62,536 nt of DNA from an uncultured Gammaproteobacteria bacterium (GCA_964357925.1 CAYHMW010000004.1:1-62536), one strand, 5' to 3'. Shown: positions 1-51,000, counted from the first letter of the stretch. The notes: generated by a model not told the origin, from the letters alone. Numbers and translations: made by a program.

Positions 1-75
1 TGGAGTGGACAATCACAACAGTCTGTAAAACTGTCGGCCGAACGGCCTACCCTGGTTCGAATCCAGGCCTCAGCA
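1..75 (+). tRNA. tRNA-Tyr(GTA), 3' portion; the 5' acceptor strand lies off the window edge
   Basis: Hand fold. Anticodon arm ACAGT-CTGTAAA-ACTGT. Long variable arm GGCC-GAAC-GGCC. T arm CCTGG-TTCGAAT-CCAGG. 3' acceptor CCTCAGC plus A. Confidence 0.75.
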
Positions 76-1949: not shown

Positions 1950-2994
1950 CTCCGATTATTTCAAGTTGATTATAATTTGTTAAAACTACCACAATGTCCT
2001 TGGCTTCCAATACTCCATTGCCATCAATATCAAAATAACTATTTCCCTCATCCAACTCAACACTCAACTGAGTATATGGAGCGAGCAACAAGGCAATATC
2101 GAAAACATCAAGTCTATTATTCCCATCAAAGTCTCCTGCTCGAAGTTTGATAGTACCCCAATTCCAAGTATTCACACCACGGACCACCGCTACCTTAGTA
2201 AACTTCTTCGCCAAGTGCCCCTCGCCTTTTACAACTACATCATATGTCCCAGGCACAATTCCCTCGAGACGACCACTGTACACTCCTTTGTCATTCGCAG
2301 AAACCAAAACATCGTCAAACAAATAAACAACGTCTTCATTTTGTTTAAAACTTACTCTTACTTTCTTATTGGCACCCTGCCCAAAAACCCCTTGAAAAGC
2401 AATGTTAAAGACAAAAGTTGAGCCATCGCTAGCAGATGTTGTTACCAATTGCTGCTGAGAAGAAGTAGGTGTGCTAGGAATAGGTGTAGAACTGGCGTCA
2501 GATCCACCAGTAGATCCACCAGTATTGGTGACATTCACAGTCACATTGGTCGTGCTACTACTATTGGGCTGTGAAATGGCCTGCCCGCCTGTCCCACTAG
2601 GCGTGGACGTCGGTGCTGGTGTCGCTGTAGGCGCTTGTGTGGGTGCTTGTGTGGGTTGTTGTGTAGGTGCTTGTGTCGGTACAGCAGTTGGCGCAAGAGT
2701 CGCCGGCGGCTGAGTCGGGGTTTCCGTAGCAGGCGGTGGTGCATCAGTTGGAGGAGGTGCACTCGGACAATCTCCCACGCTGTCACCATGCTCCAAGTGA
2801 GCAGGAATAGCATTCTCATCAACTTCAATCGTATTCTGTCCAGAACCAGTCTGGTGACACAATTTGACTTTATGCTCCTCACCAGCAAACCTACGAAGCT
2901 CTTGCGAAGTCTGTACTAAAATAACCCCAACCACCAAACCACCAAGCAAAACCGCTAAACTAACATAATTAAAAACTCGTCCCATGCTATACAT
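1942..2994 (-). CDS. membrane-anchored surface protein with a Pro/Thr linker and a C-terminal dockerin-like tandem Ca-binding repeat
   Basis: N-terminal TM, then a Cys/His motif (CHQTGSG...HLEHGDSVGDCP) and a PT-rich linker. C-terminus carries DFDGNNRLDVFDIALLL and DIDGNGVLEAKDIVVVL, two dockerin-type loop-helix repeats. Confidence 0.6.
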   Translation of the reverse strand: MYSMGRVFNYVSLAVLLGGLVVGVILVQTSQELRRFAGEEHKVKLCHQTGSGQNTIEVDENAIPAHLEHGDSVGDCPSAPPPTDAPPPATETPTQPPATLAPTAVPTQAPTQQPTQAPTQAPTATPAPTSTPSGTGGQAISQPNSSSTTNVTVNVTNTGGSTGGSDASSTPIPSTPTSSQQQLVTTSASDGSTFVFNIAFQGVFGQGANKKVRVSFKQNEDVVYLFDDVLVSANDKGVYSGRLEGIVPGTYDVVVKGEGHLAKKFTKVAVVRGVNTWNWGTIKLRAGDFDGNNRLDVFDIALLLAPYTQLSVELDEGNSYFDIDGNGVLEAKDIVVVLTNYNQLEIIGDE

Positions 2995-3956: not shown

Positions 3957-4775
3957 CTATATCGCCAAAAGAAGTGCACCAATTATTAATACTACTCCCA
4001 CAGAAACTCCCATCATTGTAGGAGCCACAATACCAGCATTAGGAAGTACCGCAACAGGAGTCCCAGATCCAGTTGCCCTTGGCGTAGCACTCCCTGTCGC
4101 CTTTGATGTCGCAGTCGCCTTGCCACTACCAGTCGGGCTGGCAGTACCAGTGCCCGATCCTGTAGCGGATGATGTAGAACCAACACCCCCAACTCCAAGA
4201 ACTCTGTAGGTACCAGTAGTTGAAGGAGTGAGAAGTACATCTTCTCCAGTTTCCTTCGCTGCAATAATGCTATTGTTCGGAGCAAAAGCAAGCACAACAG
4301 GGTTAATTTCAGGTGCCGAAGCAGCTACTAGGTCGAAGGTTGCAAGCTGCGTGTCCACCTCAGTTGAATAACCAGTCGTGCTTGTGTTGAAACACGAAAT
4401 GTCAATCGTGGCTATTCCTGCACTGGCGTTAAATTGAGTCACAGGACACGTCCACTCCCCAGTTCCCAGAAGTCCGCTACTTATCGTTATGTTCTGAACA
4501 TCCACAGGCGCCGAAACCTCACTATAAGTATAGTTAAGCTTTGCAGCTATCCCCGAAATAGAAAGCCCACCAGTATTAAATAACACACTCACACGAGTTG
4601 ATTCACCAATTGAAATTGTAGAAGTGTCTGGACTTACAGTAACCGTCGATGTACCACCAGGAACAGAGGCTTTCTCTCGAATATCCTGTTGCTGTCGAAG
4701 CAAATAAACAGCAGCAACAACCCCAAGAACAAGAACTAAAATGAGAATTACAATTACTAACACCCTTTTATTCAT
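3957..4775 (-). CDS. cohesin-like surface protein with a C-terminal LPxxG-like sorting motif plus a hydrophobic tail
   Basis: N-terminal TM and a cohesin-like beta domain (ISGIAAKLNYTY...GEWTCPV...DISCFNTS). Then a GS/T-rich linker and LPNAG followed by a hydrophobic segment at the C-terminus. Confidence 0.5.
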   Translation of the reverse strand: MNKRVLVIVILILVLVLGVVAAVYLLRQQQDIREKASVPGGTSTVTVSPDTSTISIGESTRVSVLFNTGGLSISGIAAKLNYTYSEVSAPVDVQNITISSGLLGTGEWTCPVTQFNASAGIATIDISCFNTSTTGYSTEVDTQLATFDLVAASAPEINPVVLAFAPNNSIIAAKETGEDVLLTPSTTGTYRVLGVGGVGSTSSATGSGTGTASPTGSGKATATSKATGSATPRATGSGTPVAVLPNAGIVAPTMMGVSVGVVLIIGALLLAI

Positions 4776-4866
4776 TGGCAGATAACTAACGTTATATACT
4801 TTTTACATAGTCGTCAAGCAGGACTTTGGTGCATGCGGCAAAGCTTGATCTATAGTAGAATTAGCA

Positions 4867-5466
4867 ATGGACAAAGAAGAGCTTGTCACTCTCTATTCTT
4901 CGGGGAAATCCATGAACGAAATATCAATCATAAAGGAATGCTCAATTAATAAAATCGTTTATTGGATGGATAAACACAACATCGCAAGAAGGTCACTTAG
5001 CGAAGCGATTTACCAAAAATCAAACCCAAGTGGGCATCCATTTAGTATAAAGAAAAACATGAATAACGCTGAACAAATACTTTACGGACTGGCTCTTGGA
5101 ATTTATTGGGGAGAAGGAAACAAAGCAGATAAATATCAAGTGCGAGTTACCAACACTGATCCAAAGATGATTTTGATATTCAGGGCGTTTTTACTAAATA
5201 TCTGTGGAGTAAAGCCAGACAAGATTTCATATAGCATAGTATCATTTCACGATCTAGATGAATTGAAGATTAGAAGGTACTGGAGCAAACAACTCAAGAT
5301 ATCCGAAGAAAAATTTGGTAAAATCGTCAAGATTCCGTCGCAAAGCAAAGGGACATACAAAAAGAAGTCAAAAAAAGGTGTTGCAAGCATCACTGTGTCG
5401 AACACTAAGTTTAAAGAGTGGATTCTGAACGAAATAGATTCAACACACAACTTTTTGCCCAAGTAG
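4867..5466 (+). CDS. HTH plus LAGLIDADG-like homing-endonuclease-type protein (putative)
   Basis: N-terminal HTH-like segment (SGKSMNEISIIKECSINKIVYWM). LAGLIDADG-like motif ILYGLALGIYWGEGNK. The stop codon overlaps the first 10 nt of tRNA-Thr. Confidence 0.45.
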   Translation: MDKEELVTLYSSGKSMNEISIIKECSINKIVYWMDKHNIARRSLSEAIYQKSNPSGHPFSIKKNMNNAEQILYGLALGIYWGEGNKADKYQVRVTNTDPKMILIFRAFLLNICGVKPDKISYSIVSFHDLDELKIRRYWSKQLKISEEKFGKIVKIPSQSKGTYKKKSKKGVASITVSNTKFKEWILNEIDSTHNFLPK

Positions 5467-8402: not shown

Positions 8403-8436
8403 AGAGCCGCTAGTGCGATAAGCGGCTCTATTTTTA
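8403..8436 (+). terminator. intrinsic terminator
   Basis: 9-bp stem AGAGCCGCT/AGCGGCTCT with a 9-nt loop, followed by ATTTTTAT. Confidence 0.8.
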
Positions 8437-8807: not shown

Positions 8808-8846
8808 GCGCGCTCACAAGTAGCCTCAACTGAGCGCGCATTTTTA
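8808..8846 (+). terminator. intrinsic terminator
   Basis: 9-bp stem GCGCGCTCA/TGAGCGCGC followed by ATTTTTAT. Confidence 0.8.
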
Positions 8847-26314: not shown

Positions 26315-26332
26315 TAGTAGCAGAAATCTTTT

Positions 26333-26370
26333 CCCCGCTCCACCAATTGGCGCAGCGGGGATATTTTTTA
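26333..26370 (+). terminator. intrinsic terminator
   Basis: Stem CCCCGCT/AGCGGGG followed by ATATTTTTTA. Confidence 0.7.
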
Positions 26371-37699: not shown

Positions 37700-37721
37700 T
37701 TTTGTACCCCAGGAAGGAATC

Positions 37722-37763
37722 CCTGCCCGCCATTGGCTACGCCGCAGGCGTTGGCAGGCGGGG
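37722..37763 (+). repeat. GC-rich hairpin element, copy beside tRNA-Arg
   Basis: CCTGCCCGCCAT...GCAGGCGGGG. Outer stem CCCGCC/GGCGGG, inner stem ACGCC-GCA-GGCGT. Both termini match 39637..39679. Confidence 0.7.
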
Positions 37764-37777
37764 AACCTGAACTCTTG

Positions 37778-37849
37778 TGCTCCAACCAGGAATCGAACCT
37801 GGATCTAGCCCTTAGGAGGGGCTTGTTCTGTCCATTGAACTACTGGAGC
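37778..37849 (-). tRNA. tRNA-Arg(CCT)
   Basis: Hand fold of the reverse complement. Acceptor GCTCCAG/TTGGAGC. Anticodon arm AGCCC-CTCCTAA-GGGCT. T arm CCAGG-TTCGATT-CCTGG. Confidence 0.9.
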
Positions 37850-37923
37850 GGACAATCCCTATTATACCAGCCAATTTTTAAGCCACAAAAAAGGCTGGTT
37901 AAGATAACCAGCCAACGAACAAA

Positions 37924-38187
37924 TCACTCTGGGCGCGTAATAACCTTAAAACTCGTACCCTCTATCACAAATGTGTGTGGCCACGAAGTTGGCTCAGTTG
38001 TCATTTCATGCGCCACCTGATAGCCAACGAGTTGAACAAAAGGTTCAAACGCTTTCCATCTACTTTCCCCGACCAACTCAGACTGGATTCGACCGAGCTC
38101 GTCCATATATTGCCCATTCGCATGGGACACAAGTCTCAAGGTGAAAAGCAAGTTCCGATCATAGAACACCTCAGCAATTACACCCAT
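37924..38187 (-). CDS. hypothetical protein
   Basis: ORF track only. Confidence 0.35.
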   Translation of the reverse strand: MGVIAEVFYDRNLLFTLRLVSHANGQYMDELGRIQSELVGESRWKAFEPFVQLVGYQVAHEMTTEPTSWPHTFVIEGTSFKVITRPE

Positions 38188-38287
38188 TTTCCCTCCCTAA
38201 CACGATAACGCTCTAACTATATTCTCCAGGCTGCAAGCCCTAAAAAGGCCAGCCACAAGGCTGGCCAAAGGACAAGAAACCGACTCT

Positions 38288-38521
38288 CTACCGCTCCTCC
38301 GCAACGTAAATACTGAGTACACCCTTCTTGAGTTCGAAGGGCACCTCTCGATGAGCCACTATCTCCTCGCTCACATATCGAGCGACTCTTCGAGCTGCTA
38401 TGTGCAATCCCGGATCTGTTGCCATCAGATCAAGAGAATATTCCCCTTGATCGTCAAAAACAACAATGAATCCGAACCCGCCCAAACCTCCTTCAACGCG
38501 AGTCAAAACCTTCAACTTCAT
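38288..38521 (-). CDS. hypothetical protein
   Basis: ORF track only. Confidence 0.4.
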   Translation of the reverse strand: MKLKVLTRVEGGLGGFGFIVVFDDQGEYSLDLMATDPGLHIAARRVARYVSEEIVAHREVPFELKKGVLSIYVAEER

Positions 38522-38590
38522 ATACCCTCCTTAAAATTGGGCTATGTCTTCTTTGATTCTACATTAGCACCCCATAGTAGTCAACCACTA

Positions 38591-39373
38591 CTACTTTAAC
38601 TCGACCACTACACTAATCTCTCCCTTAAGAACCTTCATTTCGCAAAGTTCGCTCATAACCTCACCCACTTGCCCTCTATAATGAGTCTCATATAGCTTTG
38701 TCATTTCCCTCCCAACGAGCACTCGCACTTCCCCAAAAACCTCTCTAACCATCTCCAAGTTTTTAATTACCCTATGTGGGGAATCAAAATATACAAAAGG
38801 ATAATTTAATTTCCGCAAATTTTGTAACTGCTTCAAAGCCTTTCTTTTTGGAAAAAAACCAATGAATATATATCGTGACACATCAAACCCACACACACTA
38901 AGCACCGCACTCACCGCGCTCACACCCGGTATGGGAATGATTTTAATTTGATCTCCAGCAACACTGTTACGCGACGTAGGCATATCAGCAGCTAAACGAC
39001 TGGCTGCCCCGCCACCGGCGGGGCCCTCGAAGGAGTGAAGACCTGATATGCCGAGAGGAGCGCTGTTATTGTACAAAAAATCAATTAACTCATTCCCTGG
39101 ATCACTTATTCCTGGCGTCCCAGCATCCGTAATAAGTGCCAAATCCTGTCCCTGTAGAAGCATGTTAAGTACCTCGTATTTGAGGGCCTCATTACTATGT
39201 TGATGATAAGATCTGACCGACGTTTTTATATCAAAATGTGTCAGCAATTTTTTAGCACTCCTCGTATCTTCTGCCAAAATTAAATCCACATTGCCCAAGA
39301 TTTGAACTGCACGAGAAGTCATATCCGAGAGATTTCCAATTGGTGTAGCAACGATGTAGAGGCTTCCTAACAT
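38591..39373 (-). CDS. rsmI: 16S rRNA (cytidine1402-2'-O)-methyltransferase RsmI, carrying an internal insertion of about 35 aa
   Basis: LYIVATPIGNL.D...RA...L..VDLILAEDTR, DAGTPGISDPG, IPGVSA and GFFPKRK motifs. Confidence 0.85.
   Translation of the reverse strand: MLGSLYIVATPIGNLSDMTSRAVQILGNVDLILAEDTRSAKKLLTHFDIKTSVRSYHQHSNEALKYEVLNMLLQGQDLALITDAGTPGISDPGNELIDFLYNNSAPLGISGLHSFEGPAGGGAASRLAADMPTSRNSVAGDQIKIIPIPGVSAVSAVLSVCGFDVSRYIFIGFFPKRKALKQLQNLRKLNYPFVYFDSPHRVIKNLEMVREVFGEVRVLVGREMTKLYETHYRGQVGEVMSELCEMKVLKGEISVVVELK
38979..39052. repeat. 74-nt GC-rich palindromic insertion, in frame inside rsmI
   Basis: 10-bp terminal inverted repeat GGCATATCAG (38979-88) / CTGATATGCC (39043-52). Central hairpin CCCCGCC-ACC-GGCGGGG (39007-39023). 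Confidence 0.65.
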
Positions 39374-39614
39374 ATGTCTACACTATTATATATCACCACA
39401 CACACCTACTCCACAATCCAAGGGCCAGGAACCCATCTCAGCAACGAACAATATAATTATAGGTATAGAAATATTGTACACAGAAATTGTGGATAACTTG
39501 TTACTCAATCCTTACTATAAGATATCAATAATAACTATGTATTAATTTACACGCATGAAAACATATGAGGAGTATTTGTATACATAGGAAGTTTGGGCTA
39601 TATTAAGGAATATT

Positions 39615-39758
39615 CGGGGAGTAGCTCAGGGGTAGACCTGCCCGCCATCAGCTGTCGCCTCAGGCGACTGCAGGCGGGGTGCGCAGCGGGGACTAGTGTA
39701 TCGGCAACACGCCATGTTCGGGACATGGAGACACCGAGTTCAATTCTCGGGTCCCCGA
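39615..39758 (+). tRNA. tRNA-Pro(CGG) interrupted by a GC-rich insertion of about 70 nt in the D-arm region; possibly a pseudogene
   Basis: 5' part CGGGGAG-TA-GCTC-AGGGGTA-GA. 3' part CCATG-TTCGGGA-CATGG, AGACA, CCGAG-TTCAATT-CTCGG, GTCCCCG-A. Acceptor pairs 1-72 through 6-67 are Watson-Crick. Confidence 0.65.
39637..39679 (+). repeat. GC-rich hairpin element, copy inside tRNA-Pro
   Basis: CCTGCCCGCCAT...GCAGGCGGGG. Outer stem CCCGCC/GGCGGG, inner stem GTCGCC-TCA-GGCGAC. Confidence 0.7.
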
Positions 39759-39767
39759 CAAAAATCA

Positions 39768-39872
39768 TTATCTTAACCCAGATTTTTTGACGTAGTCTCA
39801 AAAACTGGAGTTATCTTAACCCAGATTTTTTGACGTAGTCTCAAAAACTGGAGTTATCTTAACCCAGATTTT
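39768..39872. repeat. 43-bp tandem direct repeat: two full units plus a 19-nt partial unit formed by the 3' end of atpC
   Basis: TTATCTTAACCCAGATTTTTTGACGTAGTCTCAAAAACTGGAG at 39768-39810 and 39811-39853. TTATCTTAACCCAGATTTT again at 39854-39872, which is the last codons plus stop of atpC. Confidence 0.9.
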
Positions 39873-48013: not shown

Positions 48014-51000
48014 ATGACATATCTACCCAACAATACCCAAAACCAACCCTTAAGTATCCATGAAGCATCTGAATTTCTTGGCGTCTCAACTAAAACTCTC
48101 CGAAGGTGGGAAGCAAAAAAAGTTCTCGTCCCTGTTCGTACCGCTGGCGGCCACAGACGCTACAGTTTTAAAAAGCTTGTAGAATTCAAAAACAAAGGCG
48201 CCAAAAGTAAATCAAATACAACCTACGATTCATCAACAATCTTCCCCCCAAGCTTCGACGCACTCCCAACAGTTTCCTACTTCACAAAACCCCTGCCGGA
48301 AACCCAAACGTCGATTGAGCCTGTATTGCTTCCGCATTTAAAACCCCTCGAACCAAGCGAAGTACCAGGGGCAACTGATCTACTCAAAAATGCAATTTCC
48401 GCAACAATATTAACCTCACTCGTAGCCTTAGTCTTGGCTGGATTTTCTATTCTATTTACCGCAGTCAAAATCAACCTACCAAGCATCGGGGATGCGCAGC
48501 CCCGAGGCGATCGGAGTGAGCTTTTCGGGGCCAACCCCAACCAAGAGAACACAGTCATCCCGCACGAAGATGCGGGATCCAGAATTGAAAACGATGTATT
48601 GGCTGCCAGTTCCATTCTCCAAGATGTAAATCTCAACATTAACGTCCCCACAAACATCGATAATAGCTTTCGCGTCAGCGGCGCTTCAACCTTCGATGAC
48701 GACATTGCCTTAAACGGCACAAACGTCACATCTACCCAAGATGAAGTGAATCTCTTCATTGGCACTAGTCCAGGGACGATCAACATCGGCGGTGGAGCTT
48801 CAACCACAAGCATCGGTGGAATTGCAAATCTGGGAGGCAATTCTCTCATCTCCCCTGGCGATCTACTGATTGACCCGGGCGGAGGCGGCGTGTCCATAGG
48901 CACGGGAACTGCAAGTACCATCAATCTGGCAGGAGACGATTTTTTCGTTTCTGGGGACTTCGAAGTTGACGGCTCCCTTGTCGTCGGCAGCGATTCAATT
49001 ACTGACCTCACAGGTTCCGGTCTTCAAGTAAGCTCAGGTGCTCTCCAAGCAACCCTAGGTACCTCAATCACAACCGGCGAAATAGAAAACGACACAATCC
49101 TGGAAGTCGATTTGGATATCACAAACGATCCGACAGACAACTACATTCTAACCTACGATTCGGCAACAGCCGGCTTTACTTGGGTAGCATCAAGTGCCGC
49201 AGTAATCACAATCGAAAACAACGACACAGGGGTAGGCACAGATGTCACGACAATCGACTTCTCAACAGACTTCACAGTTGCAGCTTCCCCAGCAAGTGAA
49301 ACAAACGTTTCCATCGCAGACGATATATTAAGCTTTACAGAATTCAGTGACACCCTGACAGCAGAAGACGGTACAATCCTCGACCTCTCGTCAATCAATC
49401 ATTCAACAACAGCTATTGAAGGTATCAAACTACCGCAAAGTGCTCTCTCAAGCGGCCCGAGTTCTGGTGATGGCTTCTTGGCATTCGACACTGATGATAA
49501 TCAAGTCAAAGTTTGGTACTCTGGTGCCTGGAGCTCAATTGCCGGAGCCTCAACCACCCTCCAACAGTCCTACGCCAATGATGCCGATGGCTCAGACGCA
49601 ATAATCGCCCTTACAGCTGACGACGATTCCATAATCGTAAGAAACCCCAGCTCAAGTGGCACAGACTCTGGATACTTAATGAGCCTTGATCAGCTAAATA
49701 CAGGCAGCGTTGATGCTCTTCAAGTCAGCAATTCCGGCACCGGCGACAGTGTCCAGATAACAAATTCGTCAACTGGTTTAATAATGAACCTCGCGGCTTC
49801 CGGTTCAGGAACTACAGCAGATGGCATATTAATATCTCAAACAGGATCGGGAACGATCACTGACGCAATTGATCTAAGCGATGAAACGATCACAAACGCA
49901 CTAAACATCGGTGCGAATATAATCATAGGAACAACCGCTTCAATCGACTTCACCAACTTTGATGTTGCAACAACAGGTGCAATTACAACAGGTGCAGCAG
50001 GTCAAGATGGCCAACTCGTAATCTACAATGACCTGGCCACTGATAGAAGCATAACGATTAACCCAAGTTCCTCTCAGGGAGCAGACATCACCTATACACT
50101 CCCCCCAGATGATGGTGCAGCTGATAATTATGTGTTAACAACAGATGGCAGTGGAGTTCTCAATTGGGAAGCAGTTACGGGAGCAGGCGCTGTTGATGAG
50201 ACAGGAACAAACACATCCGGCCAAATAGCGTACTTTACAGACGACAACACTCTCACCTCTTCATCGAATTGGGTATTTGTAGACAGTCAAACAACAGGCA
50301 ACACACTCTCAGTAGCTGCAACGACTCTAACCACAGGTAACCTGCTTGATGGAACCGCAACCTATGTCGACGCAACAGGAGGGACAGATAGTGCAATTGA
50401 TATCAATCTAACTAATAATCCAGTAACCAACGCAAACACGCTCCGTGGCTTAGACATTGGTTTCACTGATGCAGGAAGCCTTGCAAACACAATTTATGGG
50501 GTATACATAGATGCAACAACAGCAAACTCTAGTGACACTACATATGCAGGAGTGCTTCTTGGCGGCAACGTAGGAATCAATGATGCCACTCCAGATGCCA
50601 GACTTGAGATTTTAGCTACAACTGAACAACTAAGACTCACCTACACCGACGGTACTGTTGATGCAAGATTTACCGTAGACAGTAGCGGCAATCTCAATAT
50701 AGACGTTACAGGAACCAAGACCATCATAACCGACGATCTTCAGGTAACAGGCAACGACATTCTAAGCTCAAGCGCCACGGCAGCCCTAACATTATCAGGA
50801 ACAGATGTCACAGTAGCAGGTGATTTGACAGTTTCAGGCGGAGACATCATCGGCATCGCAACCACCAATCTCCTAAATACTGCCTCCACAACCATAAACT
50901 TCGCCTCTGCAGCCACCACTCTAAACATGGCAGACGCCGCAATCACAGGGACAATCGATATTGGAGGCGTCACAAGCGATGGCACAAGCACTATAAATAT

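Follow-up and report, generated by a model that had tools for sequence, protein, structure and literature searches.

The known bacterial tRNA introns are group I introns that lie in the anticodon loop, and archaeal bulge-helix-bulge (BHB) introns can sit in the D or T arms. Rickettsia palindromic elements are 100-150 bp long, are found in one genus and lie inside genes, including RNA genes, and are carried in frame in proteins. The SDRs of Nostocaceae, reportedly described by Elhai et al. in 2008, are said to be tiny (<50 nt), structured sequences with compensatory changes. They reportedly measure 21-27 nt, occur in one cyanobacterial subgroup in association with HIP1 or heptamer repeats, and nest in themselves and in other palindromes; mobility without an enzyme of their own has been inferred for them. 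REP elements and REPINs are short, GC-rich imperfect palindromes, dispersed and non-autonomous, that nest or cluster and are found without target duplication (PMC3116915). The GC clusters of yeast mitochondria (GC42) are ~42-nt GC-rich palindromes in AT-rich DNA whose presence is sporadic between close relatives; they merge and nest, and may spread by recombination through conserved flanks (PMC4478555). The tRNA fragments associated with integrative elements are 3' parts, and a 9-23 kb island with an integrase lies between the fragment and the gene (PMC9897764).

The DNA analyzed in this work, referred to throughout as the window, is a stretch of 62,536 nt from an uncultured Gammaproteobacteria bacterium (GCA_964357925.1 CAYHMW010000004.1:1-62536). 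A preliminary description, made from the sequence alone, proposed that a tRNA-Pro(CGG) gene of this window is split in its D-arm region by a GC-rich insertion. We put forward a different reading, in which we place high confidence: the locus contains a stump, left by an older tRNA-Pro gene of type A and broken by a copy of a 42-nt mobile-like repeat, and then an intact type B gene with a presumably processed leader (Table 1). The proper annotation of the locus is one intact tRNA-Pro(CGG) and one pseudogene stump, and it is the repeat family, not the tRNA, that constitutes its interesting part and is worth a dedicated study.

The gene content of the window is bacterial, with the alpha, gamma, beta and epsilon subunits of an F-type ATP synthase, MreB and RsmI, and a G73 tRNA-Trp is also seen. 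Named homologues of the RsmI product belong to the Microgenomates, Woesebacteria or Patescibacteria group. The tRNA-Pro is flanked by the 3' end of atpC on one side and the 5' end of rsmI on the other, and the place and order of atpC, tRNA and rsmI are held in all relatives examined. The rsmI gene of the window also carries a palindromic insertion, which is in frame.

Table 1. Features of the tRNA-Pro and tRNA-Arg loci of the window, with positions counted from its first nucleotide
Feature	Position	Strand	Basis or remark
Outer part of partial tRNA-Arg T arm and degenerate acceptor 3' strand, GATTCCTTCCTGGGGTAC	37704..37721	-	Match beyond 14 nt suggestive
Second copy of the element, 41 nt	37722..37762	+	Sequence match to the 39637-39678 copy
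Inner stub of partial tRNA-Arg T arm, TTCAGGTTC	37763..37771	-	6 nt after intact tRNA-Arg
Intact tRNA-Arg(CCT)	37778..37849	-	ARAGORN; Rfam tRNA, 66.2 bits
Promoter-like motif (TTGTAT, 17 nt, TATATT)	39576..39604	+	~10 nt upstream of the stump; conservation
Stump of older, type A tRNA-Pro(CGG), positions 1-23	39615..39636	+	Identity to L125 gene
GC-rich palindromic element, CCTGCCCGCCAT...GCAGGCGGG, 42 nt	39637..39678	+	Absent from orthologous L125 site
Remainder of the stump, positions 24-31, GTGCGCAG	39679..39686	+	Match to L125 gene
Intact contiguous tRNA-Pro(CGG), type B	39687..39758	+	ARAGORN; Rfam tRNA; cloverleaf minimum free energy (MFE) fold

The gene that makes the tRNA is contiguous and ordinary, and nothing unusual is left in it. 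Its first 25 nt, at 39687-39711 (CGGGGAC TA GTGT ATCGGCA ACAC G), form a full 5' half whose acceptor 5' strand pairs 7/7 with GTCCCCG, and the contiguous gene is free of mismatches. It displays C1:G72, A73, G37, a D arm GTGT/ACAC and a T arm CCGAG TTCAATT CTCGG, and CCA is not encoded. ARAGORN calls tRNA-Pro(cgg) at 39687-39759 and returns the same contiguous gene when introns are allowed, a check that the preliminary description had proposed. A local Rfam search places RF00005 at 39687-39758 with 54.0 bits (model positions 1-71; gathering score 29) and flags no non-canonical pair in the alignment; the score is that of the local search, the whole-window run at gathering settings having lost the tRNA-Pro through a filter artefact. 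Folded alone, the 73-mer has a clean cloverleaf as its MFE structure (-30.6 kcal/mol, z = -3.1). A73, G35 G36 and G37 are established proline identity elements. Direct reading finds them all in 39687-39758 together with C1:G72, a hallmark of tRNA-Pro (PMC10164551), so that the gene combines the two traits of a canonical bacterial tRNA-Pro, a full cloverleaf above threshold and the proline identity set. The tRNA-Pro gene content was judged within the 62-kb window.

The sequence directly upstream has a different origin. The closest relative found, L125, has an RsmI 71-72% identical to that of the window and shares the order atpD-atpC-tRNA-rsmI, and its tRNA-Pro(CGG) is uninterrupted (CGGGGAGTAGCTCAGGGGTAGAGTGCGCCGTTCGGGACGGCGAGGCCGGCGGTTCGAATCCGCCCTCCCCGA). 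The segment at 39615-39636 (CGGGGAGTAGCTCAGGGGTAGA), which occurs once in the window, is identical to the first 22 nt of this intact gene and spans the acceptor 5' strand, the D stem 5' strand, the D loop and the first 2 nt of the D stem 3' strand. L125 then reads on continuously, as CGGGGAGTAGCTCAGGGGTAGA|GTGCGCCGTTCGGG..., where the window has the same 22 nt, an extra 42 nt and then GTGCGC-AG. The two loci thus constitute a filled-site and empty-site pair; in the window the element separates A23 from G24, no target site is duplicated, and one G could be assigned to either side of the boundary. After the element, GTGCGC corresponds to positions 24-29 of the L125 tRNA, position 30 differs and position 31 matches; 39615-39636 and 39679-39685 together reproduce the first 29 nt of the L125 gene. 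The old gene ends after position 31, and the intact gene begins at the next base.

The intact gene departs from this older sequence in the D arm (GTGT/ACAC in type B, GCTC/GAGT in type A), in the anticodon stem (CCATG and CGCCG, respectively) and in the T arm (CCGAG TTCAATT CTCGG and GGCGG TTCGAAT CCGCC). Judged from these sequences, it is of a different type throughout and not a repaired old copy. Both types recur at the same locus in the relatives: type A in L125, L135 and L137, and type B, the same sequence type as the intact gene, in L133 and L136. The locus of L128 holds a degenerate, type-B-like remnant and that of L126 no tRNA-Pro, and the window has the type A stump followed by a whole type B gene. 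This alternation of type A, type B, remnant and absence indicates that tRNA-Pro(CGG) is labile and apparently dispensable here. The hairpin element is absent from the loci of all these relatives, including the neighborhoods of tRNA-Pro and tRNA-Arg.

The stump is 29/29 identical to the L125 gene, and the adjacent promoter stretch differs at ~6/39 positions. Such high identity could reflect a recent origin or some constraint, rather than a decaying relic. A metagenome scan with the 22-mer of the stump returned three unrelated tRNAs and no further alleles of the locus. Upstream of the stump, TTGT...TTTGGGCTAT is invariant in an alignment of the window with L125, L128 and L133, and the promoter-like motif (TTGTATAC...TTTGGGCTATATTAAGG) stands directly 5' of the tRNA-Pro gene in L125, as it does in L133. 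A consensus promoter and terminator scan reported no sigma-70 site at its own threshold and found nothing else. We regard the conserved motif as the putative promoter of the whole stump-hairpin-tRNA transcript. Transcription would begin a few bases before 39615, the stump and hairpin would make up a structured 5' leader of ~72 nt, and RNase P would cut at 39686/39687. In the MFE fold of 39615-39759 the CGGGGA of the stump pairs with the 3' end of the tRNA, so the leader could interfere with folding.

Either strand of the inserted element folds as a DNA hairpin (-14.5 and -13.3 kcal/mol, z about -3), and the hairpin and leader match no Rfam family, be it intron, ribozyme or other, up to E = 10. 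A second copy lies 14 nt past the 3' end of the tRNA-Arg(CCT) gene, on the same strand as the first. The outer arms of the two window copies are identical and their inner stems differ, GTCGCC/GGCGAC in one and ACGCC/GGCGT in the other, with pairing retained. Read on the strand of the tRNA-Arg, the second copy sits between C56 and G57 of a T-arm-like fragment; when the element is removed, CAGGTTC^GATTCCT matches the T arm of the adjacent tRNA-Arg at 14/14 positions. On sequence grounds, a tRNA origin for the part of 37704-37721 outside this 14-nt match is suggestive. A comparison of the partial T arm with the trailer of L126 gave no significant homology (127/2000 shuffles). Two small ORFs between the copies match no family. 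The possibility that the two copies form the ends of a 1.9-kb composite element was rejected, the intervening rsmI being syntenic in all relatives.

The element belongs to a widespread family. A scan for the pattern CCTGCCCGCCAT-N15-30-GCAGGCGGGG, run on a single genome for each GTDB species and with exact outer arms required, located it at at least 120 loci in many phyla. The conservation of the outer arms is imposed by this pattern, and the size and conservation of the family are those of the exact-arm matches listed. Most of the matches listed come from Patescibacteria (Saccharibacteria, Levy-, Gottesman-, Doudna- and Curtissbacteria and others); the rest include Desulfobacteraceae, Bacteroidota, Ignavibacteriota, uncultured Gammaproteobacteria, Actinomycetota, Elusimicrobia and Verrucomicrobia, and a few look like chance occurrences, in GC-rich coding DNA. 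Near-identity over the whole element crosses phylum boundaries, L078 being equal to L026 and L041 close to the window copy. Among the matches listed, the element is 38-43 nt long and consists of CCTGCCCGCCAT, a variable inner stem-loop and GCAGGCGGG. The inner segment of these copies has 58% pairwise identity and yet folds better than shuffled sequences (mean z = -0.93, p = 3e-13).

The family is statistically associated with tRNA fragments, local palindromes and flanking repeats. Sixteen of the 132 listed copies lie at most 60 nt from a tRNA called by ARAGORN, against ~2% expected from the tRNA density of the same loci. In more than 20 cases among the matches listed, the flanks without the element align to an adjacent intact tRNA across the insertion point, as in L028 (28/28), L089 (29/29), L052 (30/30) and L123 (39/41). 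The tRNA-linked copies among these matches typically reside in a partial tRNA copy with an intact one directly beside it, and two layouts recur. In the first, a 5' partial copy lies upstream with the element in its D arm (the window tRNA-Pro, L025, L026, L028 and L089). In the second, a 3' partial copy lies downstream, and its T loop carries the element at C56^G57 (L030, L032, L052, L054, L066, L084, L100, L111 and L123), and the tRNA-Arg copy of the window follows this same arrangement. Occasional sites are the anticodon loop (L075, L077) and acceptor position 6^7 (L074, L069). The partial copy is the same as its intact neighbor in L028, L089 and L052 and is of another type elsewhere, as in the window, and the stub on the inner side of the element usually comprises just 6-13 nt. 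The orientation of the element relative to the tRNA is mixed, which argues for an element acting at the DNA level and against a motif of the tRNA transcript.

Complementarity of at least 7 bp between the flanks, which places the element at the tip of a local palindrome, is seen in 8% of the listed copies and at 0.44% of control positions. Flanking direct repeats of at least 10 nt accompany 13% of the listed copies versus 1.6%, with a perfect 14-nt pair in L038, and nested and tandem copies are found in L010, L018 and L030. Most listed copies lie neither in palindromes nor near tRNAs. Clustering of the ORFs within 1.5 kb of 130 copies yielded housekeeping families only and no recurrent transposase, and replication-strand bias relative to local GC skew was not significant (51 vs 65, p = 0.23). 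A viral collection gave a single match in 2.9 million contigs, indicating that the element is not phage-borne. Searches of the literature, by arm sequence and by subject, turned up no description, which is not proof of novelty; a small palindromic repeat distributed across phyla, often within the leftovers of tRNA genes, is apparently undescribed.

We call the element mobile-like because its occupancy differs between relatives, it occurs in either orientation and it forms nested and tandem copies, and because local hairpin tips and the neighborhoods of tRNA genes carry an excess of copies. The case for mobility is built on one filled and empty pair and on these patterns of distribution. The hairpin at the tRNA-Pro locus would accordingly be a piece of non-autonomous mobile DNA, one copy of a 38-43-nt palindromic repeat family, and not an intron. 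A distinctly less likely explanation is that it is a host cis-element (a protein site, a signal for RNA stability or processing, or a terminator-like structure) that has been recruited for use in tRNA transcripts. The enrichment of copies beside tRNA genes would suit such a role, as would an outer stem conserved across phyla over a maintained inner stem, but the conservation of the outer arms is a product of the search pattern, and the copies near tRNAs vary in position (upstream, downstream, in the D, anticodon or T loop, or in the acceptor stem) as well as in orientation. The T3-G wobble of the outer stem forms a pair on the '+' strand of the element only, and the stump is unexpectedly well conserved; against these two points stand copies that lie in dead tRNA fragments, at no fixed distance from live genes, and relatives that have the same genes without the element. 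Nested and tandem copies, and copies in unrelated palindromes, look like insertions.

Much less probable still is that the stump is an att relic, that is, that an element with a tyrosine integrase entered the tRNA-Pro and was later deleted, with the hairpin as its leftover. A partial tRNA beside a complete one is a known signature of integrative elements (PMC9897764), and several partial copies elsewhere begin in the anticodon loop (L075, L123). However, integrative elements duplicate the 3' part, at a distance of kilobases, and what is found here is a 5' segment with a spacer of 0-2 nt and no integrase in the neighborhood. Moreover, the hairpin lies inside the old tRNA sequence, at A23^G24, and not between repeats, and the stump is of another gene type than the intact copy.

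The reading of the preliminary description, in which one tRNA-Pro carries an intervening sequence of ~70 nt that is excised or tolerated and 39615-39636 is the mature 5' part, retains hardly any credibility. The bases at 39615-39758 are exactly as it quoted them, and 39712-39758 does contain the anticodon arm (CGG), 5-nt variable loop, T arm and GTCCCCG-A that it described as the 3' flank. These do not form the exon of a split gene, since they belong to the contiguous, complete gene at 39687-39758. The two flanks are 75 nt apart (39637-39711), and the last 25 nt of this interval, which went unrecognized, are the 5' half of the intact gene; the foreign part of the supposed ~70-nt insert is thus 42 nt (39637-39678). 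Nor do the flanks assemble into one canonical tRNA-Pro, as had been claimed, because, once joined, they are missing a proper 3' strand for the D stem and set G7 opposite G66. The 5' flank was rightly taken for a true tRNA-Pro fragment, as its match to L125 attests, but it is part of a different, truncated gene copy, orthologous to a type whose 3' part in L125 is unlike 39712-39758. This copy lacks its own 3' two-thirds, so removal of the insert could not yield a tRNA. ARAGORN accepts artificial joins of 39615-39636 to 39709/39712-39759, which makes such acceptance weak evidence, and the pairing of the distal CGGGGA with the 3' end in the MFE fold of the 145-mer also lends itself to the split-gene view. 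The hairpin, however, occurs elsewhere in both orientations and outside tRNAs, and it matches no intron or ribozyme family in Rfam.

Three explanations had been offered for the insertion. An extra arm tolerated by the tRNA and a new kind of intervening sequence both fall, an uninterrupted tRNA lying within the supposed insert. Inactivation of a tRNA gene by a small hairpin element comes close to the fate of the upstream copy, but the downstream gene is intact. The preliminary description acknowledged that an intact second tRNA-Pro(CGG), together with no transcript from the locus, would reduce the case to an ordinary pseudogene, and such a second copy is present within the very coordinates of the finding; the alignment of orthologous loci that it recommended places the 42-nt insertion in the other tRNA-Pro type. 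The existence of a split tRNA gene, or of a new intervening sequence in a functional tRNA, is refuted here. The case illustrates that a complete tRNA gene with a partial copy next to it can pass for a single gene that has been split.

That the arrangement is an artefact of assembly or binning, with tRNA-like pieces of different strains fused through the GC-rich repeat, is a negligible prospect, for although chimeric joins can arise at repeats and the supporting contigs have low coverage (cov 3-4), 39447-39810 is base-for-base identical, across both junctions, in the window and in contigs from three separate assemblies (Hainich H41 R1, R2 and R3), and on either side the flanks keep synteny with relatives. 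These contigs come from 0.1-µm metagenomes of replicate samples of groundwater well H41, Hainich; their identity indicates that the arrangement is real, and the chimera that had been named as a possible objection is not found at either junction.

Under the preferred reading, an older gene broken by a mobile-like repeat and followed by an intact gene of another type, two origins may be considered. An ancestral tandem pair, promoter-A-B, followed by differential loss, is a proposition that we consider evenly balanced between being right and wrong; recombination in which incoming type B DNA took the place of the 3' part of a disrupted A gene is plausible, if somewhat short of probable. Insertions would persist in tRNA-like sequence only where the copy concerned is redundant. 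Models of tandem duplication, template switching and target duplication were considered for the copies beside tRNAs, and none fits all of the recent cases L028, L052 and L089. Trailers and spacers differ between copies, and the layout X-[element]-Y-spacer-X-Y therefore fits no simple target or tandem duplication. One idea is that, once DNA has been taken up, conserved tRNA sequence might serve as the site of the recombination by which the element spreads, in which case only those events that leave an intact gene would survive.

A bolder proposal, which we offer tentatively and think rather unlikely to hold, is that the hairpin represents a new miniature class that occurs across phyla and inserts into hairpin loops in DNA or RNA, the D, anticodon and T loops of tRNA genes in particular, with insertion mechanistically coupled to the regeneration of an intact tRNA end, so that it drives the turnover of tRNA alleles and does not merely build up in dead fragments. 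Coupled insertion of this kind would give the recurrent layout X-[element]-Y(~8 nt)-spacer-X-Y, and recombination through conserved tRNA sequence is a possible route for its spread between lineages. If the element is mobile, it ranks among the smallest mobile DNAs known, and it would provide a model for movement without an encoded enzyme and for the crossing of phylum boundaries, as well as for the duplication, replacement and loss of tRNA genes in streamlined genomes.

Comparison with described systems places the element outside the known classes of tRNA intervening sequence. The joined flanks are incomplete as a split tRNA and an uninterrupted gene is present. A group I intron would lie in the anticodon loop and possess a P1-P9 core of >200 nt, and the insertion here has 42 nt and lies in the D stem. 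The gene content of the window is not archaeal, and the interrupted copy has no downstream exon, so a BHB motif cannot form. The palindrome shares with Rickettsia palindromic elements its location inside an RNA gene, and the in-frame insertion in rsmI is a further likeness. Partial tRNAs beside complete ones, mistakable for parts of genes, link the locus to the fragments of integrative elements (PMC9897764); unlike those, the pieces here lie at distances of 0-130 nt, may derive from the 5' part and have a 40-nt hairpin in a loop. MITEs have terminal inverted repeats and a duplication of fixed length, and the window and L125 pair shows no duplication; elsewhere, the flanking direct repeats vary in length and offset. 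As regards the traits of IS200/IS605-type elements, there is no target duplication, no fixed tetranucleotide in the left flank and no GC-skew bias (51 vs 65, as above).

In behavior, and by analogy, the closest relatives of the element are REP elements and REPINs, the GC clusters of yeast mitochondria and the SDRs of Nostoc. Like REP elements and REPINs, which are linked to RAYT, IS200-like transposases, it is short, GC-rich, palindromic and without target duplication, and it is dispersed: the 62 kb contain 2 copies, MAGs elsewhere have several each, and the hairpin folds are confirmed. REP families, however, are lineage-specific, have hundreds of copies, usually in inverted doublets, and gather near a RAYT gene. 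The present element is the same ~40-nt sequence across phyla, occurs mostly as singlets and has no strand bias, and within 1.5 kb of its copies no transposase-like family recurs. We know of no description of a preference for tRNA loops in REPs. With the GC clusters it has in common a ~42-nt GC-rich palindrome, sporadic occupancy and nesting; the GC clusters are organellar, have short AG/ACT flanking repeats that the window site lacks, and show no sequence similarity to it. Like the SDRs, it is tiny, structured, nested and found within other palindromes, and unlike them it crosses phyla and is associated with tRNAs; to our knowledge, no link between SDRs and tRNA gene fragments has been reported. 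What sets the element apart from all three is the combination of spread across phyla with residence in tRNA loops and partial tRNA copies.

The spacer that holds the stump of an older tRNA-Pro(CGG) gene contains a second instance of a duplicated gene end, that of atpC. The 43-nt unit arrayed in tandem here begins with the final 19 nt of atpC (TTATCTTAACCCAGATTTT, present in three copies) and folds into a hairpin overlapping the stop codon of this gene; in a contig from an independent assembly (L004), the array is shorter by one unit. The neighboring gene rsmI encodes an in-frame insertion of about 37 amino acids, shared with L125, the closest relative found, and absent from five other RsmI homologues. 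In the window, the DNA of this insertion is a nested palindrome, with perfectly matching outer arms of 10 nt each (GGCATATCAG/CTGATATGCC) flanking an inner GC hairpin, and looks like a further palindromic element, tolerated within the protein. The stretch at 37850-38590 is lineage-specific, and the two small ORFs between tRNA-Arg and rsmI show neither a Pfam match nor homology to the ORFs occupying the same position in L126, another relative compared at this locus. Over the whole window, perfect GC-rich hairpins with a stem of at least 7 bp number 10, versus roughly one expected from shuffled sequence; some may be terminators, and others additional palindromic insertions.

The intact tRNA-Pro (39687-39758) scores 54 bits against Rfam when 400 nt are searched alone, and was not reported at the gathering threshold in a scan of the whole window. 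This omission is a miss of the speed filter, and as such is relevant to automated annotation. In the minimum-energy fold of 39615-39759 (145 nt), CGGGGA in the stump pairs with UCCCCG at the 3′ end of the tRNA, enclosing everything between them, so that the stump-bearing leader could compete with the true acceptor stem in precursor folding.

Features in the window and at loci of other genomes and metagenomes
Feature	Sequence	Position	Strand	Remarks
Class II (long-variable-arm) tRNA	window	1-75		3′ part only, cut by window start; Rfam 34 bits
Perfect GC-rich hairpins (examples)	window	8404-8428, 8808-8839, 26332-26361, 48499-48531		
Small ORF	window	37924-38187	minus	between tRNA-Arg and rsmI
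Small ORF	window	38288-38521	minus	between tRNA-Arg and rsmI
rsmI	window	38591-39373	minus	
DNA of RsmI insertion	window	38979-39052		nested palindrome within rsmI
Inner GC hairpin	window	39006-39024		GCCCCGCC-acc-GGCGGGGC, inside rsmI palindrome
Tandem array of 43-nt unit	window	39768-39872		each unit opens with atpC 3′ end
tRNA-Pro(CGG), then array of three T-arm fragments	L011	~1960-2140		Saccharibacteria MAG CAYZYY010000025.1
GC-rich structured stretch	L135	2167-2225	minus	between promoter-like motif and tRNA-Pro
Unrelated metagenomic tRNA	L139	1236-1430		JGI Ga0102955_1015948; 22-nt 5′ end common with stump

Copies of the GC-rich palindromic element that lies in the stump were also found in other genomes. 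One of the T-arm fragments of the Saccharibacteria locus holds the element, and another holds two different T-loop hairpins (gccctatcattcgatagggc and ccccgccggatgacgggg), an arrangement which suggests that the same process was repeated in rounds and involved several hairpin families. At two further loci, larger repeats apparently carried the element along as a passenger when they were amplified: in L107 (~4260-5340), a repeat unit roughly 107 nt long, whose arms are GTTGTG...CACAAC, occurs six times at a spacing of 120-350 nt, each unit carrying one copy of the element at its center, and in L051 (3850-4680) a longer repeat containing the element is present in three copies.

The GC-rich structured stretch of L135, a relative sharing the locus with the window, contains TGACGTTTCGGGTCA, which resembles an anticodon arm; the stretch may represent a further relic of tRNA-Pro at this locus. 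The metagenomic tRNA matching the 5′ end of the stump carries about 130 nt of additional sequence, possibly a group I intron, ahead of a T arm and an acceptor end that are both normal.
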